Below, in pieces: positions 2,640 to 57,900 of a DNA stretch of 64,000 bases. The notes beneath the pieces were generated by a model. That model did not search any database. It was not told the DNA's origin and saw only the letters and a list, made by a program, of their open reading frames with translations. Position 1 is the stretch's first letter. Every line of letters begins with the position of its first letter. The translations under genes and the position numbers were made by a program. Source of the stretch: a virus (Duplodnaviria > Caudoviricetes); IMG/VR virus record IMGVR_UViG_3300018413_000007, positions 1 to 64,000 of that record. The stretch is one strand, 5' to 3'.

Positions 2640-5189
2640 ATGCAATTCTACACTTCAGTAGATAGACTCGGCAACAACATCCTCTACCGTGGATACAAGA
2701 ACGGCAAGAGGGTGGCACACAAAATTCCATACAAGCCCACTCTCTATGTTCATGCCCCGAACAAGAAAGAAGGCACCACCCATACCTCCCTGCTGACAGA
2801 GAAGCCTCTCCATCCGTTCAAGTTCGACTCGATGAAAGAGGCCTCGGACTTCGTCGACCAATACAAAGATGTTGGGATGATGGAAATCTGTGGGAACACG
2901 AAGTATGTGGCTCAATTCATTCAAGAACATTACCCAGGCGAGATAGAGTTCGATATCAATCAGATCAACATTGTCTCGTTCGATATCGAGGTTGATGTTA
3001 CCGATGGCTTCCCCAACGTGGAGGAGGCTGATAACCCAATCACATCCATCGCGTACAAATCTTCCAAGTCAGATACCTATCATCTGCTCGGTCTGAAAGA
3101 TTACGACAAATACGCAACGATCACTGACATCGACCCAGAGAATATCAACTTCATCAAATTCGATACCGAACAACAACTCCTTCGGCATTTCGTGGATCTG
3201 TGGACATCTGACTATCCAGATATCGTAACAGGATGGAACGTAGAGTTCTTCGATATCATGTACATCGTGACGAGAATTCTTCGAGAGTGTGGTGAGGAAT
3301 TGGCAAACCGACTGTCCCCGTGGAAAAAGATTCGTAAACGTAGCCGTGAACTCTTCGACAAGATCCAATCGACCTATTCGATCTCTGGTGTGGCTGTCCT
3401 CGACTATCTGGATGCTTTCAAGAAGTTTGGATACAAATATGGCCCACAAGAATCATTCAAACTTGACCATATCGCTCATGTGATCCTCGGTGAGAAGAAA
3501 CTTGATTATACCGAATACGGCTCATTGACAGCCCTCTATGAACAGAATCCTCAGCTCTATCTCGATTATAACCTCCAAGATACCCGACTGATTCAAAGAC
3601 TAGAAGATGAGACTGCCCTATTGGCTCTCGTGATGACCATCGCGTACCAAGGTGGTGTGAATTACCAAGAGGCATTCGGGACTGTGGGCATATGGGAAAC
3701 CACACTCTATCGTCGATTGATGAGCAAGAATATTGCCCCACCGATCAAGAGTGGTTCTCCCGGTCACCGCGCGGATCTCGTTGGTGGATATGTGAAAGAC
3801 CCTCAGATCGGTCTACATCCTTGGGTCGTGTCCTTTGATTTGAACTCCCTGTATCCTCACCTTATGCTTCAATACAATATGTCACCCGAGACGTACATTG
3901 GTGATCGTAGAGAATATGTGACGCAGGACATGGTTCTCAAGGGTGATTACAAGAACGACGATCCTAACGTGTCGGTCACTGCCAATGGTGTGTGTTTTCG
4001 AAATGACAAACTGGGAATCATTCCAGAAATCATTGATGAATACTACAACAACCGATCCAAGATCAAGAAACAGATGTTGGCTGTAGAACAGCAACTCGAG
4101 GTTGAGAAAGATCCTCGACAGATCAAAAAACTCAAGGCAGAGGCCAATCAGTTACACAACTCTCAGATGTCGATCAAGATCTCGATGAACAGCCTCTATG
4201 GTGCGACTGCCAACATTTACTTCGCATACTATATTAATGAGATGGCCGAGGCGATCACCACATCTGGACAGCTCTCGATTCGATATGCCCAGAAATCGGT
4301 GAACGATTATCTAAACAAACTCCTCAAGACTGACGACAAGGATTATATCATCTACATCGATACCGACTCGATCTATGTGAACTTTGCCCCGGTGATCGAA
4401 GAGGTCTTCGGTACTGTTGATATTGATCGGCAGAAGGGTGAAGAATTTCTCGACAAGATCTGCTCCTCGAAAATCGAAGATGTCATTGAAAAAGGATACC
4501 AGAAACTTGCAGATGACATGGGTGCGTATCGGCAGGCCATGGGGATGAAACGAGAGAAGATCAACGACAAGGGTCTGTTCGTGGCCAAGAAGAGATACAT
4601 TCTCAATACCCTCAACTCTGAAGGTGTCCATTATGAGACCCCAAAGATCTCTGTGACTGGCTTGGAATCTGTTCGGTCCTCGACTCCTGAGGTCTGCCGA
4701 GATAAGATGAAAGAGGCCTTCAAGGTGATCATGCAGGGTACCGAATCAGACACCCAACAATTCATCGCCGAGTTTCGAGATCAGTTCAAATCGCTCCCCA
4801 TCGAAGAGATCGCCAAGAACTCAGGAACTGACAACATTGACAAATTCCGTGTGAAGGCCGGCCCAGAACTCTACAAGAAGGGATGTCCAATCCACGTCCG
4901 TGGCTGTATCCTGTACAACGACTTCCTGCAGAAGAAGAATCTATCCAAGAAATACGAGAAGATCATCTCCGGTGATAAGATCAAATATGTCTATCTGAAA
5001 CTCCCCAACCCCCTGCGAGAGAATATGATCTCGTTCCCCCGTAACCTACCCAAGGAGTTCGACCTCCAGCCCTACATCGACTACGATACCCAGTTCGACA
5101 AAGTGTTCCTCAAACCCATTGAAATCATCCTCGAGGCCCTAGGTTGGTCTGCCGAGAAGGTCAATACCTTAGAAGATTTCTTCTCGTGA
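2640..5189 (+). CDS. gp43: Family B DNA polymerase
   Basis: Exonuclease motifs SFDIEV, GWNVEFFD, DYNLQD; polymerase motifs SFDLNSLYP, KISMNSLYG, YIDTDS; 849 aa with no apparent intein. Confidence 0.97.
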   Translation: MQFYTSVDRLGNNILYRGYKNGKRVAHKIPYKPTLYVHAPNKKEGTTHTSLLTEKPLHPFKFDSMKEASDFVDQYKDVGMMEICGNTKYVAQFIQEHYPGEIEFDINQINIVSFDIEVDVTDGFPNVEEADNPITSIAYKSSKSDTYHLLGLKDYDKYATITDIDPENINFIKFDTEQQLLRHFVDLWTSDYPDIVTGWNVEFFDIMYIVTRILRECGEELANRLSPWKKIRKRSRELFDKIQSTYSISGVAVLDYLDAFKKFGYKYGPQESFKLDHIAHVILGEKKLDYTEYGSLTALYEQNPQLYLDYNLQDTRLIQRLEDETALLALVMTIAYQGGVNYQEAFGTVGIWETTLYRRLMSKNIAPPIKSGSPGHRADLVGGYVKDPQIGLHPWVVSFDLNSLYPHLMLQYNMSPETYIGDRREYVTQDMVLKGDYKNDDPNVSVTANGVCFRNDKLGIIPEIIDEYYNNRSKIKKQMLAVEQQLEVEKDPRQIKKLKAEANQLHNSQMSIKISMNSLYGATANIYFAYYINEMAEAITTSGQLSIRYAQKSVNDYLNKLLKTDDKDYIIYIDTDSIYVNFAPVIEEVFGTVDIDRQKGEEFLDKICSSKIEDVIEKGYQKLADDMGAYRQAMGMKREKINDKGLFVAKKRYILNTLNSEGVHYETPKISVTGLESVRSSTPEVCRDKMKEAFKVIMQGTESDTQQFIAEFRDQFKSLPIEEIAKNSGTDNIDKFRVKAGPELYKKGCPIHVRGCILYNDFLQKKNLSKKYEKIISGDKIKYVYLKLPNPLRENMISFPRNLPKEFDLQPYIDYDTQFDKVFLKPIEIILEALGWSAEKVNTLEDFFS

Positions 5190-5544: not shown

Positions 5545-5573
5545 TTGACAAAGGCCCCGATCTAGCCTATAAT
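5545..5573 (+). promoter_or_regulatory. Early sigma70-type promoter (perfect consensus)
   Basis: A/T tracts, then AAAAAAGTG-TTGACA-N17-TATAAT. Confidence 0.9.
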
Positions 5574-6448: not shown

Positions 6449-6476
6449 TTGACATCCCAGCCAGATGTGTTATAAT
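6449..6476 (+). promoter_or_regulatory. Early sigma70-type promoter
   Basis: Palindromic T8A7 tract, then AAAAGTG-TTGACA-N16-TATAAT with an extended -10 TG. Confidence 0.85.
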
Positions 6477-7607: not shown

Positions 7608-7833
7608 AACTGAAGAGCAAATCCTCGATGAATGTGAATATTATGGGTTAGACCCAGATTCAGAGGTGAGCCATGGCCAGAAAGTATCTCTCGGTCATAT
7701 TTCTTTTCTGGTTTACGACAACGCCGGTGCGTCTATACGAAAATTGGTAGATACTCCTATGGAAGACCCCGGCGAAGTCGTTTGTCCTACCTGTGGTGGC
7801 ACAGGAAAAGTTCTTGACAATTCGACTAAATAA
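7564..7833 (+). CDS. Hypothetical protein with C-terminal CPTCGGTG motif
   Basis: AAAGGA RBS; a single CxxCxGxG zinc-ribbon half motif. Confidence 0.6.
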   Translation: MKLIEALVRSCGHYKTEEQILDECEYYGLDPDSEVSHGQKVSLGHISFLVYDNAGASIRKLVDTPMEDPGEVVCPTCGGTGKVLDNSTK

Positions 7834-7842
7834 TGGTATAAT
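7814..7842 (+). promoter_or_regulatory. sigma70-type promoter for the glycosyltransferase cluster
   Basis: AAAAGTTC-TTGACA-N17-TATAAT with an extended -10 TG. Confidence 0.85.
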
Positions 7843-7861
7843 GGCCACCAGTGAGGTAAGA

Positions 7862-8167
7862 ATGAAAGTAAAAGACACATCGCTAGACTACGAGACAATG
7901 TTGGAATACTCTGATGAGGAAAACATCATCGACAATCTTGATGAGTTTCTCGGCGAAGAATCTGACACCAAGCTTAAAGTAGCACCTAGAAAAATTAATA
8001 AAGAGTTTCCTGAGCCATGGCAGACCATTACGATGAACTTCCCGACCGAGGAAGATTACGTCGAATTCATGCTCAAGGCTGACGAGAAACCTATGCCTAA
8101 ACTAAATAAGTTTGTCTATAAGGCAGGCCGTACTGATACCGGCCTATTAGGATTTTTGGAGGATTAA
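7862..8167 (+). CDS. Hypothetical acidic protein resembling the N-terminal domain of the adjacent glycosyltransferase
   Basis: GAGGT RBS before ATG 7862; PWQTITMNFPTEEDYVEF resembles PFKQIRVHFNTREDREHF in the next ORF. Confidence 0.7.
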   Translation: MKVKDTSLDYETMLEYSDEENIIDNLDEFLGEESDTKLKVAPRKINKEFPEPWQTITMNFPTEEDYVEFMLKADEKPMPKLNKFVYKAGRTDTGLLGFLED

Positions 8168-9393
8168 TGTTTCAACCCGTACACACCCATGAAGAACTCC
8201 AGCAGGAGTGGAGGAACCAATTTATACAATGGTACGCAGCAGGCGCTCCTGCTTTCACCCAACCAAAACTCGATCCATTCAAACAGATTCGAGTTCATTT
8301 CAACACACGAGAAGATCGTGAACATTTCGGTGAAAGATTCGGCTACAAGCTGACCGACAAGACTCATATCCTTGCATATCCTAATAAGGAACGTGAGGTG
8401 AATCTTTTTAATAAATGGGTCGATGATGAGACCCATACTCGATACCCGATCTACATCCTGTCAAAGGGTCGATGGGAGTCACGATATACAGCCAAGGCTC
8501 TCGAACGGATGGGAATCAAATATTATATCTGTGTTGAACCTCAAGAGTTTGATAAGTATCAGGCCGTGACAAATCCAGAGTTCGGTACCGTTCTTGAATT
8601 GCCTTTCAGTAATCATGGGAAGGGCTCTGGGCCAGCACGGAATTGGATGTGGGAACACTCTCTTGCCATGGGCTTCGACAAGCACTGGATGATGGATGAT
8701 AATATCGTTGACTTTGGTCGACTCCATAACAATAAGAGATATATCATCGAGAAAGGTTCGGGTATGTTTCGGGCTGTGGAAGACTTCACAGATCGTTATG
8801 AGAATGTGGCCCTTGCCGGACCGCACTACAAATTCTTCGTGATTAATCAGTGTGCTTATCAGCCGTTCATACTAAATACTAGATTGATGTCATGTATCCT
8901 TATTGACAACCGATTCCCCGGTCGATGGAGAGGTAAATTTAACGAGGACGTTGACATCTCAATCCGAGCCCTCAAAGAAGGATGGACGACAATGTTGTTC
9001 TATGCTTTCTTTCAAGGCAAGATGAGGACAGGGACTGTCAAAGGTGGTAACACCACCGAGGTCTATAAGGACTACAAGACCGATGAGAGTGGAGAAGATC
9101 CAGCATATAACAAATCAAAGATGCTGAAAGAGATGCATCCTGATTGTGTGACATTGGTGGAACGATACGGTCGTGTTCATCATCACGTGGATCTCAACGC
9201 AATCGTAAACAAGCATACTGGTCAACCAGCAAGACAGAATGCTTTGATTTTGAAAAAAGATGTACCTATCTATAATAAGACAAACAATTATGGGATGAGT
9301 CTCATGCGAAACTATGGGCTAGAAGATGAATATCCAGACCCACATTTCGAGGCAGATGTATTCCCAACAGGAAGGACTTCAATTCATGCATAA
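8167..9393 (+). CDS. GT-A glycosyltransferase, TAGT/GREB1-like (candidate DNA base glycosylation)
   Basis: PIYILSKGR, VEPQEFDKY, GPARNW, WMMDDN (DxD-like), LNTRLMSCILI and WRGKFNEDVD match my recollection of TET-associated/GREB1-like glycosyltransferases. Confidence 0.75.
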   Translation: MFQPVHTHEELQQEWRNQFIQWYAAGAPAFTQPKLDPFKQIRVHFNTREDREHFGERFGYKLTDKTHILAYPNKEREVNLFNKWVDDETHTRYPIYILSKGRWESRYTAKALERMGIKYYICVEPQEFDKYQAVTNPEFGTVLELPFSNHGKGSGPARNWMWEHSLAMGFDKHWMMDDNIVDFGRLHNNKRYIIEKGSGMFRAVEDFTDRYENVALAGPHYKFFVINQCAYQPFILNTRLMSCILIDNRFPGRWRGKFNEDVDISIRALKEGWTTMLFYAFFQGKMRTGTVKGGNTTEVYKDYKTDESGEDPAYNKSKMLKEMHPDCVTLVERYGRVHHHVDLNAIVNKHTGQPARQNALILKKDVPIYNKTNNYGMSLMRNYGLEDEYPDPHFEADVFPTGRTSIHA

Positions 9394-10267
9394 AAAAATT
9401 CTCGTGACGGGTGGTGCCGGATTTGTCGGTAGTCATTTATGTGAGGCCTTGACAGCACTAGGTCATAACGTAACATCTATTGATAATTATTTTACCGGCT
9501 CACCTGACAATCACGTGCCGGGGGTAAGCTACATTCGCGGGACAACAGATTCCATGCGAATGGATGCCATGCCTCGATTCGATCTTGTCTATCATCTAGG
9601 AGAGTATTCTCGTGTAGAACAGAGCTTTGACGACATCAATTTGGTTCATCGATATAATGTCAACGGCACCTTTCGTTTGCTACAGGCTGCAAGGAACTGG
9701 GGTGCAAAGATCATATATGCTGGATCGAGTACAAAATTTGCAGACGAACACGATGGTTACACGATAAGCCCATATGCATTTTTCAAGAAGCAGAATACAG
9801 AACTGGTCAAGCAATTCTGTGAATGGTATCACCTCGATTATGCTATCACATATTTCTATAACGTATACGGTCCTCGTGAAATCAGTGAAGGGAAATATGC
9901 CACTTTAATTGCAAAATATATGGATCGTTTCGACAAAGGGCTTCCTTTACAGGTGGTCGCCCCTGGTACACAAAAGAGAAACTTCACTCACATTGCTGAC
10001 ATTGTCCAGGCTCTGATTTTAATTGGTATCGATGGTAAGGGTGATGAATATGGTATTGGCCATCCAGACTCTTATACAGTTCAAGAAGTCGCTGAGATGT
10101 TTAATGCTCCGATTGAGATGTTACCTCCCAGACCGGGTAACAGGATGTCTGCACCCGTGATCACGAACAAAACCAAGGCACTTGGGTGGGAGCCAGAACA
10201 CAATTTGGAAACTTATATCAAAGATTTCCTTTTCGCCATACCCCCGGCGATGAAGCTATATAAATAG
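9386..10267 (+). CDS. NAD-dependent nucleotide-sugar epimerase/dehydratase (extended SDR, WcaG/GalE-like)
   Basis: ILVTGGAGFVGSHL Rossmann motif, catalytic S (AGSS), YxxxK (YAFFK), YFYNVYGP, RNFTHIADIV. Confidence 0.9.
   Translation: MHKKILVTGGAGFVGSHLCEALTALGHNVTSIDNYFTGSPDNHVPGVSYIRGTTDSMRMDAMPRFDLVYHLGEYSRVEQSFDDINLVHRYNVNGTFRLLQAARNWGAKIIYAGSSTKFADEHDGYTISPYAFFKKQNTELVKQFCEWYHLDYAITYFYNVYGPREISEGKYATLIAKYMDRFDKGLPLQVVAPGTQKRNFTHIADIVQALILIGIDGKGDEYGIGHPDSYTVQEVAEMFNAPIEMLPPRPGNRMSAPVITNKTKALGWEPEHNLETYIKDFLFAIPPAMKLYK
10259..10266 (+). promoter_or_regulatory. T4-type late promoter
   Basis: Exact TATAAATA upstream of dexA. Confidence 0.6.
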
Positions 10268-10293
10268 ATTGATTGACACCTAAATTTTTTGTT

Positions 10294-10914
10294 ATGAGTA
10301 GAAAACACTTAATTATTGATTTTGAAACCATGGGTATTGATATTCACAGTTGTGCTGTGATCGATATGTCTGCCATGGTCTTCGACTGGGATCGTTTCCA
10401 AACCAACAAGCCCTACAATTTCGACTCTATTTCAGAGTGTAAAAAATTCAAGCTCAATGTTCAACAACAGGTAAAGGAACACGACTTTACGATTGATCAA
10501 AGCACTTTAGAATTTTGGGCAGAACAGCCTAAAAATGTCAGAAAGAACATCTCACCCAAACCAGATGATCTATCCGTAGATGAATTCTGTGATGAGTTCT
10601 TAGAGTTTCTGATTCCTCATGGCAAAATATCTTGTTGGTGGTCTCGGTCAAATACATTTGACCCCATCATCCTCTGGCGTCTCTTCGACGCTGCCGGTAA
10701 ATTACCTAAGATACACGAATATCTCCCACACTATGCATTGAGAGATACTCGAACTTGGATTGACGCAAAATTAAATTTTCCTAAAAAGAATGGATTCGCT
10801 CCAGTGAACAAAGAAGAATGGGATAAGCACTTCAAGCACCATGACAGCTCATGGGATATCCTTGCTGATGTTCTTCGCATGCAGTTCATAGAGCGGGTTG
10901 AATTTTTAGACTAA
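10294..10914 (+). CDS. dexA: 3'-5' exonuclease, DexA-like (DEDDh)
   Basis: IIDFET, WSRSNTFDPIIL, RDTRT and H...DILAD; ATG 10294 preferred over TTG 10273. Confidence 0.8.
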   Translation: MSRKHLIIDFETMGIDIHSCAVIDMSAMVFDWDRFQTNKPYNFDSISECKKFKLNVQQQVKEHDFTIDQSTLEFWAEQPKNVRKNISPKPDDLSVDEFCDEFLEFLIPHGKISCWWSRSNTFDPIILWRLFDAAGKLPKIHEYLPHYALRDTRTWIDAKLNFPKKNGFAPVNKEEWDKHFKHHDSSWDILADVLRMQFIERVEFLD

Positions 10915-10945
10915 ATAATTTTACATACATTATGGAGCACTTGAC

Positions 10946-11809
10946 ATGTCAGCTTTAACTAGAGAGCAAGAAAATCTTATGGAATACTCACTACGCTTGG
11001 GAATCATTGGTCATGGTTTCGTGGGTGGCTCAGTCTCACACGGCTTTAACAACGATTTCACGAAACAGTTGATCATCGACCCACGATTCGGTGATAGTAA
11101 CTACGACGATCTTATGGGATTCAGCCCACAGATGGTATTTGTCTGTGTACCGACACCGCAGATGCCAGATGGCACACAAGACAACACCATCGTTCGAAAG
11201 GTGTGTTCTTCTTTATATAATAAGAACTACAAAGGAATCGTCGTAATCAAGAGTACGATCACTCCTCAGAGTATCAAGTATCTGAAAACTGCTTATGGTG
11301 ATCGGTTACGCCTCGTGTATAACCCAGAGTTCTTGACCGAGGCCAATGCAAAGAAAGACTTTATCAACCCACCGTTTCAGATCATCGGTGGTGAATTGGA
11401 TGACTGTATCGAGGTCGAAAAATTCTACAAGACCCACAGTAATGTGAAAACATGTCCCACATATAAGGTTGACATGGTGGCCGCATCTATGATAAAATAC
11501 ACGATCAACAGTTTCCTTGCAATGAAGGTTGTCTTCTTCAACGAATTGAATACTCTGTTTGAAAATAGTGGAACATCAGAATCGTGGGATACCTTTACCG
11601 ATATCTTGGCACAGGAACCTCGAATGGGTCCTAGTCATATGAAGGTGCCAGGGCCAGATGGATCACGAGGATTTGGTGGTAATTGTTTCCCCAAAGATAC
11701 TGCTGGATTCGTGAAATATTCCGAGCAGGTATCTGATACCACGGGTGAGAATCACATTTTGAATTTATTAAAATACGCTACAGAACTGAATAGAGATATG
11801 AGGGGTTGA
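10946..11809 (+). CDS. UDP-glucose/GDP-mannose dehydrogenase-like protein lacking the C-terminal domain
   Basis: GIIGHGFVG, FVCVPTP, IKST, NPEFL, KYTIN, and catalytic Cys in GFGGNCFPKD; only 287 aa. Confidence 0.85.
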   Translation: MSALTREQENLMEYSLRLGIIGHGFVGGSVSHGFNNDFTKQLIIDPRFGDSNYDDLMGFSPQMVFVCVPTPQMPDGTQDNTIVRKVCSSLYNKNYKGIVVIKSTITPQSIKYLKTAYGDRLRLVYNPEFLTEANAKKDFINPPFQIIGGELDDCIEVEKFYKTHSNVKTCPTYKVDMVAASMIKYTINSFLAMKVVFFNELNTLFENSGTSESWDTFTDILAQEPRMGPSHMKVPGPDGSRGFGGNCFPKDTAGFVKYSEQVSDTTGENHILNLLKYATELNRDMRG

Positions 11810-11834
11810 CAAGCAACCCAATCTTTGATATAAT
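11806..11834 (+). promoter_or_regulatory. sigma70-type promoter
   Basis: TTGACA-N17-TATAAT with an extended -10 TG, followed directly by AGGAG. Confidence 0.85.
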
Positions 11835-11845
11835 AGGAGTTTATT

Positions 11846-12052
11846 ATGGCAGATTTACGAGAAGAAATAATTGACGGCCTTGTTACATACTTCAAGGCAG
11901 GCATTGAAAGACACAGAATCAATGTGGAGATCTTGCTCGAAAAACGTGTCGGGGTCGCAGAACACCCTGACGTGATGGAAACTATTGAGAGTGAACTGAC
12001 CAAGATTGCAGAACTTGATGATAAGATTTCTGTTCTTAACAAATATTTTTGA
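11846..12052 (+). CDS. Conserved T4-like hypothetical protein (68 aa)
   Basis: AGGAG RBS; GVAEHPDVMETIESEL motif that I recall from marine T4-like phages. Confidence 0.75.
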   Translation: MADLREEIIDGLVTYFKAGIERHRINVEILLEKRVGVAEHPDVMETIESELTKIAELDDKISVLNKYF

Positions 12053-12061
12053 GGTATTATA

Positions 12062-12928
12062 ATGTCTGAAGGTGAAGTAAGAGTAGAAGACCTGAAACAA
12101 TACAGGATCTTTCTGGGCACACCAATGTATGGTGGCCAATGCTCTGGCCTATACACTAAATCAGTGGCAGATCTATCCGCACTTTGTTCCCAGCAAGGCA
12201 TCTTTATCAATCAATATTTCTTGTTCAACGAAAGTCTAGTTCAAAGAGCAAGGAATTACATCACCGATGAGTTCCTTCGATCTAACTGTACCCATTTGTT
12301 GTTCATTGATTCAGATATTGGTTTTGATCCAAGAGATGTTTTGAATCTTCTAGCCATTCAGCATTCGAATCCAGAAACAGTACACGTAATTTCTGGTGCT
12401 TATCCGAAGAAGACAATTGCTTGGGAAAAAGTGCATGTCGCATCAAGGTTAGGCAAGGGAGATAACAGCCCCTTCGACCTCGAAAATTATTCTGCAGATT
12501 TTGCCTTGAATCTATCGAAGATGGGTGCTGATGATATGAAGAGGCCGGTACAAGTCGCAGAGGCTGCCACTGGTTTCATGTTATTGCCCAGATCAACATT
12601 AGAAGAATGGGCAAAGAGATATCCAGAGCAACGATATCGACCTGACCATGCTAGAACAGATAACTTTGATGGGACGAATGAGATCACAGCATTCTTTGAT
12701 TGTGTGATCGACCCAGAAACAAAACGATATCTTTCTGAAGATTACTATTTCTGCAAGAAGGCAAGAGAGGCTGGAATGTTTCTATGGCTATGCCCTTGGA
12801 TGAAATTGAACCATGTTGGTATGCATGTATTCAAAGGTGATATGCAGGCGATGCACGATTTAGGTCTATCTATGACAGCAGATAGATCCTCAATGAAACG
12901 AAAATATAGAAAACCGAAACGCAAGTAG
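12062..12928 (+). CDS. GT-A (GT2-like) glycosyltransferase
   Basis: FLGTPMYGG, ESLVQRARN, THLLFIDSDIGF (DxD), GAYPKK, TGFMLL, YLSEDYYFC and HVG. Confidence 0.75.
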   Translation: MSEGEVRVEDLKQYRIFLGTPMYGGQCSGLYTKSVADLSALCSQQGIFINQYFLFNESLVQRARNYITDEFLRSNCTHLLFIDSDIGFDPRDVLNLLAIQHSNPETVHVISGAYPKKTIAWEKVHVASRLGKGDNSPFDLENYSADFALNLSKMGADDMKRPVQVAEAATGFMLLPRSTLEEWAKRYPEQRYRPDHARTDNFDGTNEITAFFDCVIDPETKRYLSEDYYFCKKAREAGMFLWLCPWMKLNHVGMHVFKGDMQAMHDLGLSMTADRSSMKRKYRKPKRK

Positions 12929-12943
12929 GGAGACCCTTATATA

Positions 12944-13609
12944 ATGAACTTTAGTGAACAAACTCTGAATGTGCTGAAATCCTTTTCCGGCATCAACAAG
13001 TCTATCTTGTTGCAACCTGGTCGAGAGCTTCGCACTATTACTCCAGAGAAGACCCTTATTGCTAAGGCAGTGATTGCTGATGAGATCCCTGCTGAGGCAT
13101 GTATCTATGATTTATCTCGATTCATCTCAATTTTGAGTCTATATAATGAACCAAATGTCGAGTTCGAAGATAAATACTTTATTATCTCCGAGGGTAAGCG
13201 TAAGACAAAATATGTGTACGCTGACATCTCGATGATACACGTTCCGCCCTCTAAGGAAATTACCATTCCTTCTGAAGATGTGAAAGTGAATGTGGGTTGG
13301 GATGACCTCCAATCAGTCGTCAAGGCTGCCGGTGTTCTCCAATTCTCAGAGGTTGCCTTCGTTGGTACCGACGGTAAGGTATTCCTCAAAGCAATCGACA
13401 GTTCCAATGAAGGTTCCGATGATTACGGTATTGAAATTGGTGAGACTGCCGACGAGTTTAAGATTATCATTAAGACTGATAACCTCAAGCTCTTGCCTCA
13501 AGACTATGAAGTTGTTTTGTGCTCAAAAGGAATTTCTCAATTCAAAGGCGAAACTGCTACATATTTTGTGGCTATTGATTCAAAGTCGACTTACAATAAA
13601 GGAGCTTAA
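12944..13609 (+). CDS. gp45: Sliding clamp
   Basis: T4-like N-terminus SEQTLNVLKSFSGINKSILL, IYDLSRFIS; located just before the clamp loader. Confidence 0.92.
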   Translation: MNFSEQTLNVLKSFSGINKSILLQPGRELRTITPEKTLIAKAVIADEIPAEACIYDLSRFISILSLYNEPNVEFEDKYFIISEGKRKTKYVYADISMIHVPPSKEITIPSEDVKVNVGWDDLQSVVKAAGVLQFSEVAFVGTDGKVFLKAIDSSNEGSDDYGIEIGETADEFKIIIKTDNLKLLPQDYEVVLCSKGISQFKGETATYFVAIDSKSTYNKGA

Positions 13610-15947: not shown

Positions 15948-16454
15948 ATGAAAGTGTATAGAAGTGTTCAAGAGGCAACACTACCAGAATTCGCGACTGA
16001 GGGTTCTGCATGTTTTGATCTTAAAGCATGTTTCCAATTTGGAGATAGGCTCAAAAGTTATAATGCGTGGAATAAAGAAACCCCCATTGTAGCCAAAGAC
16101 CGACTTGAGGGTGACGCTGCAATCAAAATCCCACCCGAGACTCGTGTCCTTATACCTACCGGATTGATCTTTGATATCCCAGACAATCATGTCCTCAAGG
16201 TATATGTTCGATCAAGTGTCGCCCTCAAAAAAGGGTTGACATTAGCGAATAACACTGGTATAATAGATAGCGACTATGTCGATCCGTTATTCGTCGTCTT
16301 ATACAACCTATCAGATACTCTGGTGATGATTAAGAATGGCGAAAGGATCGCTCAGGGAATGCTCCAGAAGACTCTGAAGTATTCTCTATCAGAAACAAAA
16401 ACACAACCCGAACAAAAAACTGATCGGGATGGTGGATTGGGCAGTACAAACTAA
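15948..16454 (+). CDS. dut: Trimeric dUTPase
   Basis: GSACFDL, IPTGL, RSS, GIIDSDY, ERIAQ, RDGGLGST (motifs 1-5). Confidence 0.92.
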   Translation: MKVYRSVQEATLPEFATEGSACFDLKACFQFGDRLKSYNAWNKETPIVAKDRLEGDAAIKIPPETRVLIPTGLIFDIPDNHVLKVYVRSSVALKKGLTLANNTGIIDSDYVDPLFVVLYNLSDTLVMIKNGERIAQGMLQKTLKYSLSETKTQPEQKTDRDGGLGSTN

Positions 16455-54900: not shown

Positions 54901-57900
54901 ACATACGATGTTGCAGATTGTGAAAGAGACACGAAGTTTATTTTAGATGGTATTTCACATGACATCAAGTACGGCGGTAACTCATCTTCAAGATTGAGTG
55001 CAATTGCCTACTTCGATAATGCAACATCTCAGGTACCAGGTGAAGAGGCTCAGACAATTGCTGCATTCGGGCAATTGAAGACCATCGTAAATCAGATCGT
55101 GACTACGGCTCCCGAACAGACAAGGGTAAATGATCTGATTGATATCACAATCAATGTTTTGATTGCAGGAAGTACTGCAGGTATGCCTGCTGAGGTCGAT
55201 ATCGATGTCACTGGTCTGGATACTACAGAATATGATCAGTTTACTGGGAATCAAGCTAGTATTATATCAGACACTATCACATTTGTCAACACTAATTATG
55301 CAACGTATGATATCGCTGACTGTGAAAGAGACACAGGATATATTCTTGATGCAATTTCTCACGATGTGAAATACGGAGGTAATATTGGATCAAGGGCATC
55401 TGCTCGAGCATATTTTGATGGAGCAGTCAATCAGCTAGGAAGTGCTGCTGAGACAACTGCATCAATCGGTGCTTATACAGAATTAAAGACTTTGGTTAGA
55501 GATATTCTGGTAGCAGATCCTATCGCTACCACTACAGAGGCAGACGAATGTGATGCATTAATTGATATCATCATCGATGTATTGAATGATGGCAATTTGG
55601 ATAATCTCCCTGCAGAGGTTGAGATTGTCACCACTGGATATACAACTACAGAATATGATGATATCACTGCCAACCAGACATCTATCATTGCCAACTCCAT
55701 TGTTTATGCAAATAATAATTGGCCGAATGGACTTGGATATGATGCTGCCAAGTGTGAGAGAGATGTAGGTTATCTGCTTGATTGTGTATCATTCGACCTT
55801 CAGCACGGTGGCAACAGTGCGACCATCCAAGATGCTGAAATGTATTTCACAAATGCATACACTGTGAATACACTACCAGAGAATCAAAGAAGAGCTTCAG
55901 AAAGAGCATTTGCTCATTTGGCTGAGGTGACACGCCAGGTCGTAAATGCCGAGACTGTCACTCCATCGCCAGGTAACCCAGAATCACAGATCGTGGGCGT
56001 AACTGCTGGTACAGAGGCTGCAGATAGATCGAAGGTACTGGTCAATATCACCACAAATGTTGTCGGTGCTGCTAGTCTATCCGGTCTGCCTGCTGAAGAA
56101 GAGCCTGATACTGCTGCATATGATGCTGTATATGTATCTGCATTTAATGCTATCGAAGCAATAATACCCACGGTTCAGAAAGATGTAATCACGTATCTTG
56201 CTAGAGAATGGAATGGTTTGGGTTATGATCAGGCCAAGTGCTTCAGAGATACTGGATATGTGGTCGATGCTATTTCACACGATATTCAATATAAGGGTAA
56301 TGCAGCTACATGGAATGCGGCTCAAATATATTTCGTAAACGCAGTAAATCTGCTTCCATATGATCAGAGAGAGCCTACAAAACTTGCATGGATGCGTCTT
56401 GCAGAGGTCGTAGAAAAAGTCGTGCAGCTCCAGGCGGTAACACCAACTCCTGGCAATACTGTCGCACAGATTACTACCGGTATCACAGGCAACCCATTGA
56501 TCGGTGAGAGAGCCAAAGAATTGGGTATGTACATTGCCAATATCGTAGACGATCCAGATGATTCCAAATTACCACTACGTGATGAGCCGGATTACGATTG
56601 GGTCGCCTCTAATTATACTGCTGATGTAGATGCAATAGAGGCTCAGGCTGCGACAATCTCTACCGGTGTTATCGATTATATCGCAAAGAATTGGAATGGC
56701 CTGAGTTATATCGAAAAGAGTTGCCGACGAGATGTTGGTTTCATTGTCGACGCGATATCACACGACGTTCAATATGGTGGAAATAGAGCCACTCGTATCA
56801 ATGCACAAATTTACTTTGAAAACGCTATCAGTGTTCTCCCAGTATCAACACGGCGACAGACTGCAGATACCTACGAATATCTAGGTCTGTTGGTAAGAGA
56901 TATCGTCCAAGGTATCGACACACAAGATACACAATACACGACTACAGCACAAGATTTCACGGGTGATAATTCTAATTCTTCAGAAGGGGCCCGTGCTCAA
57001 GATCTCGTGCAGATTATTGAAAGTGTAATTCGTGAAGATAATCTTGATGTTCTGGTTTCTCAGGTAGAGCCAGATCTTTCTTGGGTCGATGCAGAATTGG
57101 TAACTCTCGGAACGACAATCGATAACAATGACACAGTCCTTGCCGATCGAATGATAGAGTTCATCAACAAAGAATTCGATGTCCTTGATTACGATAGAGA
57201 CAAGTGTTATAGAGATTCTGGTTACCTACTCGATGCATTCAGCTGGGATTTGAACTACAATTCTAATTTGGCTTCAAGATGGAATGCAGACTTCTATTTC
57301 TGGAATAACATTTTGAGATTGCCAGAAGAGCAACGTGAACCTACTGGTCGATCGTACAGAGAGTTGGGTGAGATTTGCGCCAGAGCACTGAAAGGTGAGC
57401 TCGAGGGGCAGGTGCTCAATAGTGGATTCCCAAGTGAAGTTGAGGTCGAGAAAGTCAAGGATTTGGCTAACATTTTCTATCTCACTTTGTATAATAACAC
57501 ACCTAAGAATCTTCCTGTCAAGATACAGCCGGATGAAGCATGGATGGGTGATATCTACCTCGATGCGAAGGCCGCGCTTACTGCCAAGAGAATCGATCTT
57601 GCCAAGGATGTTGTAAGATGGGTCGGGGCTACATACAGATTCGTAGATGAATATCTGACCAGAAGAGATGCCGGAAACCTCATTCAGGCTATGGTAAATG
57701 ACTTCAAGTATGTGAATACAGCATTGGCCACACCTGGCGGATACTCAGGGCCTGGTTATGGTTCATCTTTCGCTACACTGACCTACTCTGCATCGTTCTT
57801 CGATCAGGAAGGTAAGATCGTATTCCCAGTATTCAATCCATCCGACGCATATCCAAACTTGATATTCAAGGGTGTATTAGAAAATACCGGAGCATTACCT

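Follow-up and report, generated by a model that had tools for sequence, protein, structure and literature searches.

We analyzed a window of 64,000 nucleotides, positions 1 to 64,000 (the first 64 kb) of the 78,363-bp IMG/VR viral contig IMGVR_UViG_3300018413_000007, which is estimated to be 37% complete and comes from an uncultured marine divergent T4-like phage. A run of plus-strand genes at 7814-12928, inside the replication region, encodes glycosyltransferases and nucleotide-sugar enzymes. The explanation we favor, with slightly more belief than doubt, is that this early-expressed cassette carries out replisome-tethered glycosylation of the phage's own DNA with a uronic-acid sugar; that the sugar goes to DNA, which sugar it is and the docking on the sliding clamp are inferred. 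The genes on which this explanation is built are a small protein (o101), a TAGT-family glycosyltransferase of the GT-A fold, an extended short-chain dehydrogenase/reductase (SDR) and a short dehydrogenase resembling UDP-glucose dehydrogenase (UGDH), which lie behind a promoter as follows.

7814-7842, plus strand: perfect sigma-70-type promoter, TTGACA-N17-TATAAT with an extended -10 TG, upstream of o101, TAGT, SDR, a DexA-like gene and the short UGDH
7862-8167, plus strand: o101, small acidic protein of about 101 amino acids (aa), whose stop overlaps the TAGT start
8167-9393, plus strand: TAGT open reading frame (ORF), 408 aa, PF20691
8167-8430, plus strand: N-terminal domain of TAGT, about 88 aa, encoded by an ORF of its own in many relatives
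8443-9048, plus strand: GT-A catalytic core of TAGT, PF20691, inside the 408-aa ORF
9386-10267, plus strand: extended SDR of the 4-epimerase type, PF01370 (8.7e-39)
10946-11809, plus strand: short UGDH-like dehydrogenase, 287 aa, PF03721 and PF00984

An earlier note, made from the sequence alone, had proposed a DNA hypermodification cluster here, and every element it listed was found in place on the plus strand of 7814-12928, ending at gp45. o101, the distinct N-terminal domain of TAGT, the truncation of the dehydrogenase and the separate promoter of the second GT-A are additions to that note. The gene arrangement is far from chance; dozens of IMG/VR contigs share this order, at protein identities of 35-95%. 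Searching IMG/VR with TAGT yielded 65 distinct loci, and the denominators given here count the loci with enough sequence. o101 was upstream of TAGT in 53 of 61 loci, and an SDR was directly downstream in 53 of 58, being of the window's type in 33 of these 53 and of a second type in 20. A short dehydrogenase lay within 4 kb in 36/47 loci; a second GT-A protein of 288 aa (p288) was found in 43/47 and gp45 in 22/25. The identity of gp45 across the TAGT loci drops to about 35%, and over this deep divergence the cassette stays between gp43/gp46 and gp45. The conserved core is o101, TAGT and SDR.

TAGT matched PF20691 over the full model (positions 1-205 of 205) with 147.8 bits against a cut-off of 27.5, and with 149.8 bits in the genome-wide search; it also matched phrog_842 at 2.3e-45. 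Its AlphaFold2 (AF2) model reached a predicted local distance difference test score (pLDDT) of 89.3 and a predicted TM-score (pTM) of 0.89, and the Foldseek matches of this model were GT-A enzymes with a probability of 1.0. Residues R102, D177-D178-N179 and E260-D261 are invariant across 36 sequences, and these R...DDN...ED motifs fit the active-site pattern of DNA-acting GT-A enzymes and the base J glucosyltransferase JGT (Pyle et al., bioRxiv 10.1101/2023.12.21.572611). Together with the adjacent nucleotide-sugar enzymes, the family match and the fold uphold the earlier reading of a TAGT-like GT-A within the replication region.

The N-terminal domain of TAGT is related to o101. In many relatives it is an ORF of its own, placed between o101 and a TAGT core of 314-320 aa. 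A 39-residue segment is common to o101 and this domain (hhalign 93.4%, E 2.5e-7), a relation visible by profile-profile comparison only, as BLASTP of o101 against the domain gave no match; by these profiles, the two are paralogous. The profile of the N-terminal domain matched 2453 proteins, and its larger matches were other TAGTs, ParB_N proteins, one LAGLIDADG protein and one zinc-ribbon protein. In the ParB_N proteins the shared domain sits at the C terminus, and a layout of ParB_N plus a C-terminal domain is also described for the ParB activators of phage thymidine dioxygenases (PMC13229309), whose domain may be the same. The TAGT protein family comprises 2929 clusters, and four of the loci have a second TAGT paralogue.

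Other TAGT neighborhoods were also inspected. Vibrio phage Kuja has two tandem TAGTs, which are away from its SDR-UGDH pair. The TAGT neighborhoods of Aeromonas phage Aeh1 and Tenacibaculum phage PTm1 contain no sugar-nucleotide genes, and TAGT loci outside the replication module, such as L041, where the gene lies beside gp23 and CsgG/CsgF-like genes, gave no hint of an acceptor. In that T4-like contig the CsgG-like and CsgF-like (curli secretion) genes (L041:5200-6667, minus strand) are a few kilobases from gp23.

The donor sugar was approached through the SDR and the short dehydrogenase. The SDR belongs to PF01370 and carries the NAD-binding motif GGAGFVGSH, the motif GSSTKF and a YxxxK motif within SPYAFFK, so that the epimerase/dehydratase of the earlier note is present. 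Thr-Asp-Glu or Thr-Ser-Glu is the signature of dehydratases and decarboxylases; here the catalytic Ser/Thr stretch is Ser-Ser-Thr-Lys and lacks the Glu by which 4,6-dehydratases and UDP-glucuronate decarboxylases are recognized, and a pentose route via UDP-xylose is therefore unlikely. The best PDB matches were the 4-epimerases 6wjb, 4zrm and 2p5u, with UDP-xylose synthase (UXS) close behind, and the protein falls below the cut-off of every NCBIfam equivalog. The SDR of phage Kuja, which adjoins a full-length UGDH of 413 aa, shares 52% identity with it. The second SDR type, found in relatives, has its best matches among UDP-glucuronate 4-epimerases (5u4q, 2.5e-76; BcUGAepi 6zl6, 6e-46; MoeE5). 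The two types are about 26% identical and not orthologous, and each is paired with a UGDH.

The dehydrogenase itself was only partly what had been expected of a UDP-glucose-dehydrogenase-like enzyme. The NAD-binding and central domains are there: GxGxxG appears as GHGFVGG at residues 22-28, PF03721 matched at 1.2e-15 with only model positions 78-181 aligned, PF00984 matched at 1.6e-12, and the catalytic Cys motif GFGGNCFPKD and the stretch NPEFLTEAN, with the sugar-binding motif NPEFL, align with 3vtf. No PF03720 match was obtained, as the whole C-terminal UDP-binding domain is absent and the protein ends about 40 residues past the catalytic Cys. Its TIGR03026 score of 130.9, over model positions 78-296 of 413, is below the cut-off of 189.8. 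This truncation is not damage; the same two-domain form occurs in more than 7600 protein clusters of 260-296 aa. A small neighboring protein, o68, was considered as the supplier of the missing domain and set aside, having no Pfam or NCBIfam match and only phrog_1811, of unknown function.

According to these features, the supply route would most likely run from UDP-glucuronate to UDP-galacturonate, because two non-orthologous SDRs occupy the same position and each is tied to uronic-acid chemistry. Of the donors previously offered (uronic acid, pentose or epimer), a non-glucose sugar is thus retained in the form of a uronic acid and its 4-epimer, while the pentose is not, neither SDR type having Thr-Ser-Glu or Thr-Asp-Glu. 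The literature on phage Kuja, and that on UDP-glucose dehydrogenase together with DNA hypermodification, yielded nothing on this chemistry.

The proposed connection with the replisome comes from o101. Its start was assigned to the ATG at 7862, because the promoter falls inside the mechanical ORF of 124 aa and all homologues start likewise, and its coding region ends one base into the TAGT start codon. The C-terminal tail is conserved as G-(I/L)-L-x-F-(F/L/M)-(G/E)-D, reading GLLGFLED here and GILDLL, GLLDFMES, GILNFFGD or GLLSFFGD in relatives. It resembles the tail of the gp43 polymerases of the same phages, which end in T(L/I)E(D/N/S)FF(S/T/G), for example TLEDFFS. In T4 and RB69, gp43 docks on the gp45 clamp by such a C-terminal tail, and gp33 and gp55 do likewise. 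When all ORFs were scanned for the tail motif, only gp43 and o101 were retrieved from this contig, and gp43, o101 and one other protein from a 170-kb relative.

Complex prediction for o101 and gp45 gave an ipSAE of 0.56 (runs of 0.01, 0.56 and 0.61) with a best control of 0.00, which the prediction tool rates as weak support. The ipSAE mark applied is passed by 58 of 80 solved complexes and 2 of 110 mismatched pairs, and the passing scores of at most 0.60 comprise 7 of the 80 solved complexes and both mismatches; these benchmark counts hold roughly here, as custom alignments were used. Contacts agreed between runs to at least 89%, at a partner pLDDT of 43-59, and the model may remember solved clamp-peptide complexes. 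Taken with the tail, this suggests that o101 probably docks on the clamp.

Transcription of the cassette was examined through its promoters. Perfect TTGACA-N16-18-TATAAT sites number six in the window, against 0.09 expected by chance, at 5545-5573, 6449-6476, 7814-7842, 11806-11834 and 16236-16264 on the plus strand and at 55261-55289 on the minus strand; five of the six thus lie on the plus strand at 5.5-16.3 kb, the early, replication-side region. The start of 7814 claimed for a promoter-led cluster coincides with one of these sites. The notion of a single unit did not hold, because the second perfect promoter at 11806-11834 precedes o68 and p288 and divides the region into two early transcription units. 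The T4-type late-promoter word TATAAATA was seen at 10259-10266, at the end of the SDR gene and just before the DexA-like gene; its frequency in the window is no higher than chance, and nothing was drawn from it as a late-promoter signal. The remaining elements of the region, including those behind the second promoter, are listed below.

10273-10914, plus strand: DexA-like DEDD exonuclease, PF16473, phrog_255
11806-11834, plus strand: second perfect promoter of the sigma-70 type, preceding o68, p288 and gp45
11846-12052, plus strand: o68, conserved small protein, 68 aa, phrog_1811
12062-12928, plus strand: p288, GT-A glycosyltransferase of 288 aa, phrog_1574, with a basic C-terminal tail
12944-13609, plus strand: gp45 sliding clamp, phrog_223 (3e-69), the proposed docking platform

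A second GT-A with a DxD-type motif next to gp45 had been predicted, and both the fold and the motif of p288 agree with it. The AF2 model (pLDDT 84.2) found 2c0n (A197 of Sulfolobus turreted icosahedral virus, STIV; 1.7e-7), LH3, GalNAc-T2 and RmlT by Foldseek with a probability of 1.0, at TM-scores of just 0.4-0.5; D83-S-D85 is invariant in 33 sequences, and no Pfam family scored above its cut-off. In Sinorhizobium phage phiM12, Caulobacter phage Cr30 and Stenotrophomonas phage DLP6, a p288 gene immediately precedes gp45, with none of the other sugar genes (TAGT, SDR, UGDH) near the pair; the p288 family exceeds 7600 clusters, as does the short-UGDH family, versus 2929 for TAGT. p288 is the ancestral upstream neighbor of gp45 in many T4-like phages. 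The suggestion that two transferases build a disaccharide found no specific support, since p288 has its own promoter and stands beside gp45 without other sugar genes; p288 and the short dehydrogenase may act in this pathway or in a different one next to the clamp. As for DexA, which the earlier note had counted in the cluster, the gene is present and is a neighbor, not a member of the module, its position shifting or the gene being absent in relatives.

Combining the above-described features, we propose a working sequence of events. UDP-glucose would be oxidized to UDP-glucuronate by the short UGDH-like enzyme, possibly together with the host Ugd, and the SDR would 4-epimerize UDP-glucuronate to UDP-galacturonate. 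The TAGT-family GT-A would then move the sugar acid to a hydroxyl on DNA. o101 and the N-terminal domain of TAGT could pair through their shared paralogous domain, and o101 would attach to the gp45 clamp by its C-terminal tail, in the manner of the polymerase, so that new DNA might be modified while being made.

Several results weigh against this proposal. The 78-kb contig contains no match to PF00303 (the ThyA family, which includes dCMP/dUMP hydroxymethylase and the synthase of 5-hydroxy-dCMP [5hodCMP] or 5-hydroxycytosine [5hoC]) and none to PF12851 (Tet_JBP). The earlier note had seen no TET or hydroxymethyltransferase in the window; this holds for the whole contig and for a colinear 170-kb relative (G001), and neither a hydroxymethylase-like ThyA nor Tet_JBP was found in G001 and 22 other related contigs, all of these records being incomplete and G001 77% complete. 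The PF12851 search matched no control genome, its sensitivity here being unproven, and thousands of phage contigs with a 5-methylpyrimidine dioxygenase (5mYOX) have no PF12851 annotation, the Pfam TET model missing part of them (PMC13229309). A ThyA-family fragment in one relative scores as an ordinary thymidylate synthase. The relatives possess ThyX and dCMP deaminase, the ordinary dTMP route, and with serine hydroxymethyltransferase (SHMT), ribonucleotide reductase (RNR) and dUTPase their nucleotide metabolism is ordinary; Aeromonas phage Aeh1 likewise has a TAGT homologue and only an ordinary thymidylate synthase. According to Pyle et al., GT-A contigs without base-modifying neighbors are less obviously related to DNA. 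In addition, the genes of G001 include those for GT17-like and GT25-like proteins, a sulfotransferase, two FkbM methyltransferases and a cytidylyltransferase, and this phage group therefore also makes glycans with unassigned targets. Finally, UDP-glucuronate synthesis by the short UGDH is not assured, as its UDP-binding domain is absent. The only oxygenase seen in G001, a 2-oxoglutarate- and Fe(II)-dependent protein of 180 aa (PF13640), was rejected as a substitute for TET, being of a small type common in cyanophages.

What the sugar would be attached to is the point at which alternative explanations divide. If 5-hydroxymethylcytosine (5hmC) or 5-hydroxymethyluracil (5hmU) were made by a ThyA homologue or a divergent 5mYOX encoded in the unsequenced part of the genome, ordinary hydroxymethyl-pyrimidine glycosylation would result, and the cassette would be an ordinary GT-A plus epimerase cluster that happens to lie apart from the gene for base modification. 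The records leave room for such an enzyme, with this contig 37% complete and the best relative 77%, and Pfam can miss phage 5mYOX, as the control genomes left unmatched by PF12851 recall; moreover, the TAGT acceptors known so far are the primary hydroxyls of hmC, hmU or glucose. G001, however, covers the nucleotide-metabolism block (RNR, ThyX, SHMT, dCMP deaminase, dUTPase) and the whole replication module, and no second thymidylate-synthase-like gene or dCTPase was seen in it; a hydroxymethylase-like ThyA matched in 0 of 23 related contigs, and base-modification pathways are usually clustered (Pyle et al.). We regard this explanation by a hidden base-modifying enzyme as unlikely. Another explanation keeps DNA as the acceptor and dispenses with the known hydroxylated-pyrimidine routes, through a new acceptor chemistry or an unrecognized base-hydroxylating enzyme, with o101 as a dedicated clamp adaptor bringing the transferase to nascent DNA and a UGDH derivative, devoid of its UDP-binding domain, that might oxidize a hexose already attached to DNA instead of a free UDP-sugar; this bolder version seems to us improbable. 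If the target were not DNA, the location of the cassette would reflect early timing only; the sugar could then go to a protein of the replisome or virion, to a small molecule or to a glycan of the host envelope, the last having been proposed for cyanophage sugar genes. The lack of any detected acceptor-base pathway speaks for such a target, as do the further glycan enzymes of G001, the frequency of UGDH and epimerase as auxiliary genes in cyanomyoviruses, the likeness of p288 to protein- and teichoic-acid-modifying GT-A enzymes, which is as great as to any others, and the 65% of GT-A contigs that have no DNA-modification neighbor (Pyle et al., bioRxiv 10.1101/2023.12.21.572611). All characterized PF20691 or JGT-like GT-A enzymes nevertheless act on DNA, the accessory domain of TAGT is common to ParB_N and homing-endonuclease proteins, o101 bears a polymerase-like clamp tail, and the stable position of the cassette is unlike the variable islands usual for envelope genes. 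We consider a non-DNA target rather unlikely.

A further alternative concerns how far the pathway extends along the region. The unit may consist of o101, TAGT and SDR only, the short dehydrogenase, o68 and p288 being general clamp-adjacent genes of marine T4-like phages with a separate role, an arrangement compatible with our favored explanation as far as the TAGT part is concerned. The separate perfect promoter ahead of o68 and p288, the p288-gp45 pairs of phiM12, Cr30 and DLP6, and the larger size of the p288 and short-UGDH families relative to TAGT all agree with such a division, and the dehydrogenase is missing from 11 of 47 loci. On the other side, in most relatives the dehydrogenase gene immediately follows that of the SDR, their stop and start codons overlapping, both SDR types are tied to uronic-acid chemistry, and two-GT clusters that build di- or trisaccharides on DNA are known (Pyle et al.). 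We take the split as a serious possibility, its chances somewhat short of even.

Replisome-tethered glycosylation with a uronic acid, the explanation we favor, has precedents in part. One is the beta-glucosyl-HMC-alpha-glucosyltransferase of T2/T6, a PF20691 member that adds the second glucose to glucosyl-hmC and, as here, combines this family and the GT-A fold with a T4-like phage. In T2/T6 the TAGT gene is an early-region gene close to that of the DNA polymerase, as it is in this phage. There, however, gene 42 (dCMP hydroxymethylase), dCTPase and alpha-glucosyltransferase supply the glucosyl-hmC acceptor, none of which was found here, and the donor is UDP-glucose, whereas a uronic acid is predicted for this system, which also has the extra N-terminal domain of TAGT and the small partner with the clamp-type tail. 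Another comes from the work of Pyle et al. (bioRxiv 10.1101/2023.12.21.572611), in which reconstituted metavirome clusters showed that JGT-like GT-A enzymes glycosylate 5hmC, and one subclass II GT and epimerase pair made hexuronic-acid-5hmC in E. coli. Subclass II clusters join a JGT/TAGT-like GT-A to an adjacent epimerase, as here; they stand next to a C5-methyltransferase and a TET-like 5mYOX, whereas no methyltransferase, 5mYOX or ThyS accompanies this cassette, which instead sits in a T4-like replication core and has its own truncated dehydrogenase, an adaptor with a clamp tail and a second GT-A. The wide search in the same study lists epimerase, DNA polymerase and gp45/clamp among GT-A neighbors, and clusters of the present kind were not reconstituted there. 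The cassette is one of these orphan GT-A cases, and the present analysis delimits it as a unit conserved within a T4-like clade.

Other systems resemble single parts. JGT of base J synthesis in kinetoplastids is a eukaryotic structural relative with the same active-site motifs; base J requires the JBP1/2 thymidine hydroxylase, a dioxygenase of a family not found here, uses UDP-glucose and is uncoupled from replication. T4 alpha-glucosyltransferase glucosylates concurrently with replication via association with the T4 replisome (PMC13216743), which is the working model we propose for o101 and TAGT; that enzyme adopts a GT-B fold and is not known to use a separate clamp adaptor, whereas here the predicted link would be formed by a small protein of its own whose tail is like that of the polymerase. 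In the bacterial UDP-galacturonate route (Ugd and a UDP-glucuronate 4-epimerase such as BcUGAepi 6zl6 or MoeE5), dehydrogenase and 4-epimerase are adjacent, as here, and GGxCxxKD and NPEFL are kept in the phage enzyme; the UDP-binding domain is absent, and the substrate class of the window's SDR is not assignable. The arabinosyl-5-hydroxycytosine systems of RB69, DLP3 and Thanatos are likewise found in T4-like phages, which produce a UDP-sugar of their own and glycosylate derivatives of cytosine; their GT-B transferases, arabinose-5-phosphate route and ThyA-homologue 5hodCMP synthase are all absent here, and the systems are not related.

The surrounding genes place the cassette in a T4-type core. 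The window opens with gp47, cut by the contig end, and gp46, followed by the other replication genes.

Contig end onward, plus strand: gp47 (cut), then gp46, the first genes of the window
2640-5189, plus strand: gp43 DNA polymerase, then several small ORFs, then the cluster region

After gp45, the plus-strand order is gp44, gp62, regA, dUTPase, Hsp20 and peroxiredoxin, and then structural genes. gp43 of this phage is at most 45% identical to cyanophage (cyanomyovirus) polymerases, and no DNA nearly identical to the cluster was found among 50,697 phage records; the phage has no cultured close relative. Past the window, the contig at 72,500-78,363 has few short ORFs of at least 60 aa on either strand, unlike the remaining contig.

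Some additional observations were made in the related genomes. The first 1-30 kb of G001 (L105, L106) encode SHMT, a class I/II aminotransferase, an alternative oxidase resembling the plastid terminal oxidase (PTOX) and a glutaredoxin-fused RNR small subunit, and a ferredoxin-dependent bilin reductase and a heme oxygenase lie on the minus strand at L106:17857-18597 and L106:18604-19209. The cytidylyltransferase of G001, 667 aa with DUF5824, is part of a second glycan gene set. In phage PTm1 (NC_049340.1), the thymidylate synthase match at 199569-201143 is in two pieces within one open frame of 527 aa, as would be expected from an insertion such as an intein, and a third, weak ThyA-like match is interrupted by a stop codon.

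The interest of the cassette lies mainly in its being abundant and conserved without the expected base-modifying partner, and its abundance is attested by the 65 distinct IMG/VR loci and by thousands of protein clusters in metagenomes. If our explanation is right, a large and abundant group of uncultured marine T4-like phages would bear an acidic sugar on their DNA, which would bear on phage escape from restriction and CRISPR, on DNA recovery and base-calling in viromes, and on genome packaging. On the mechanistic side, o101, as a small adaptor with the clamp tail of the polymerase, would then offer a testable handle on how DNA-modifying enzymes are coupled to the replication fork.

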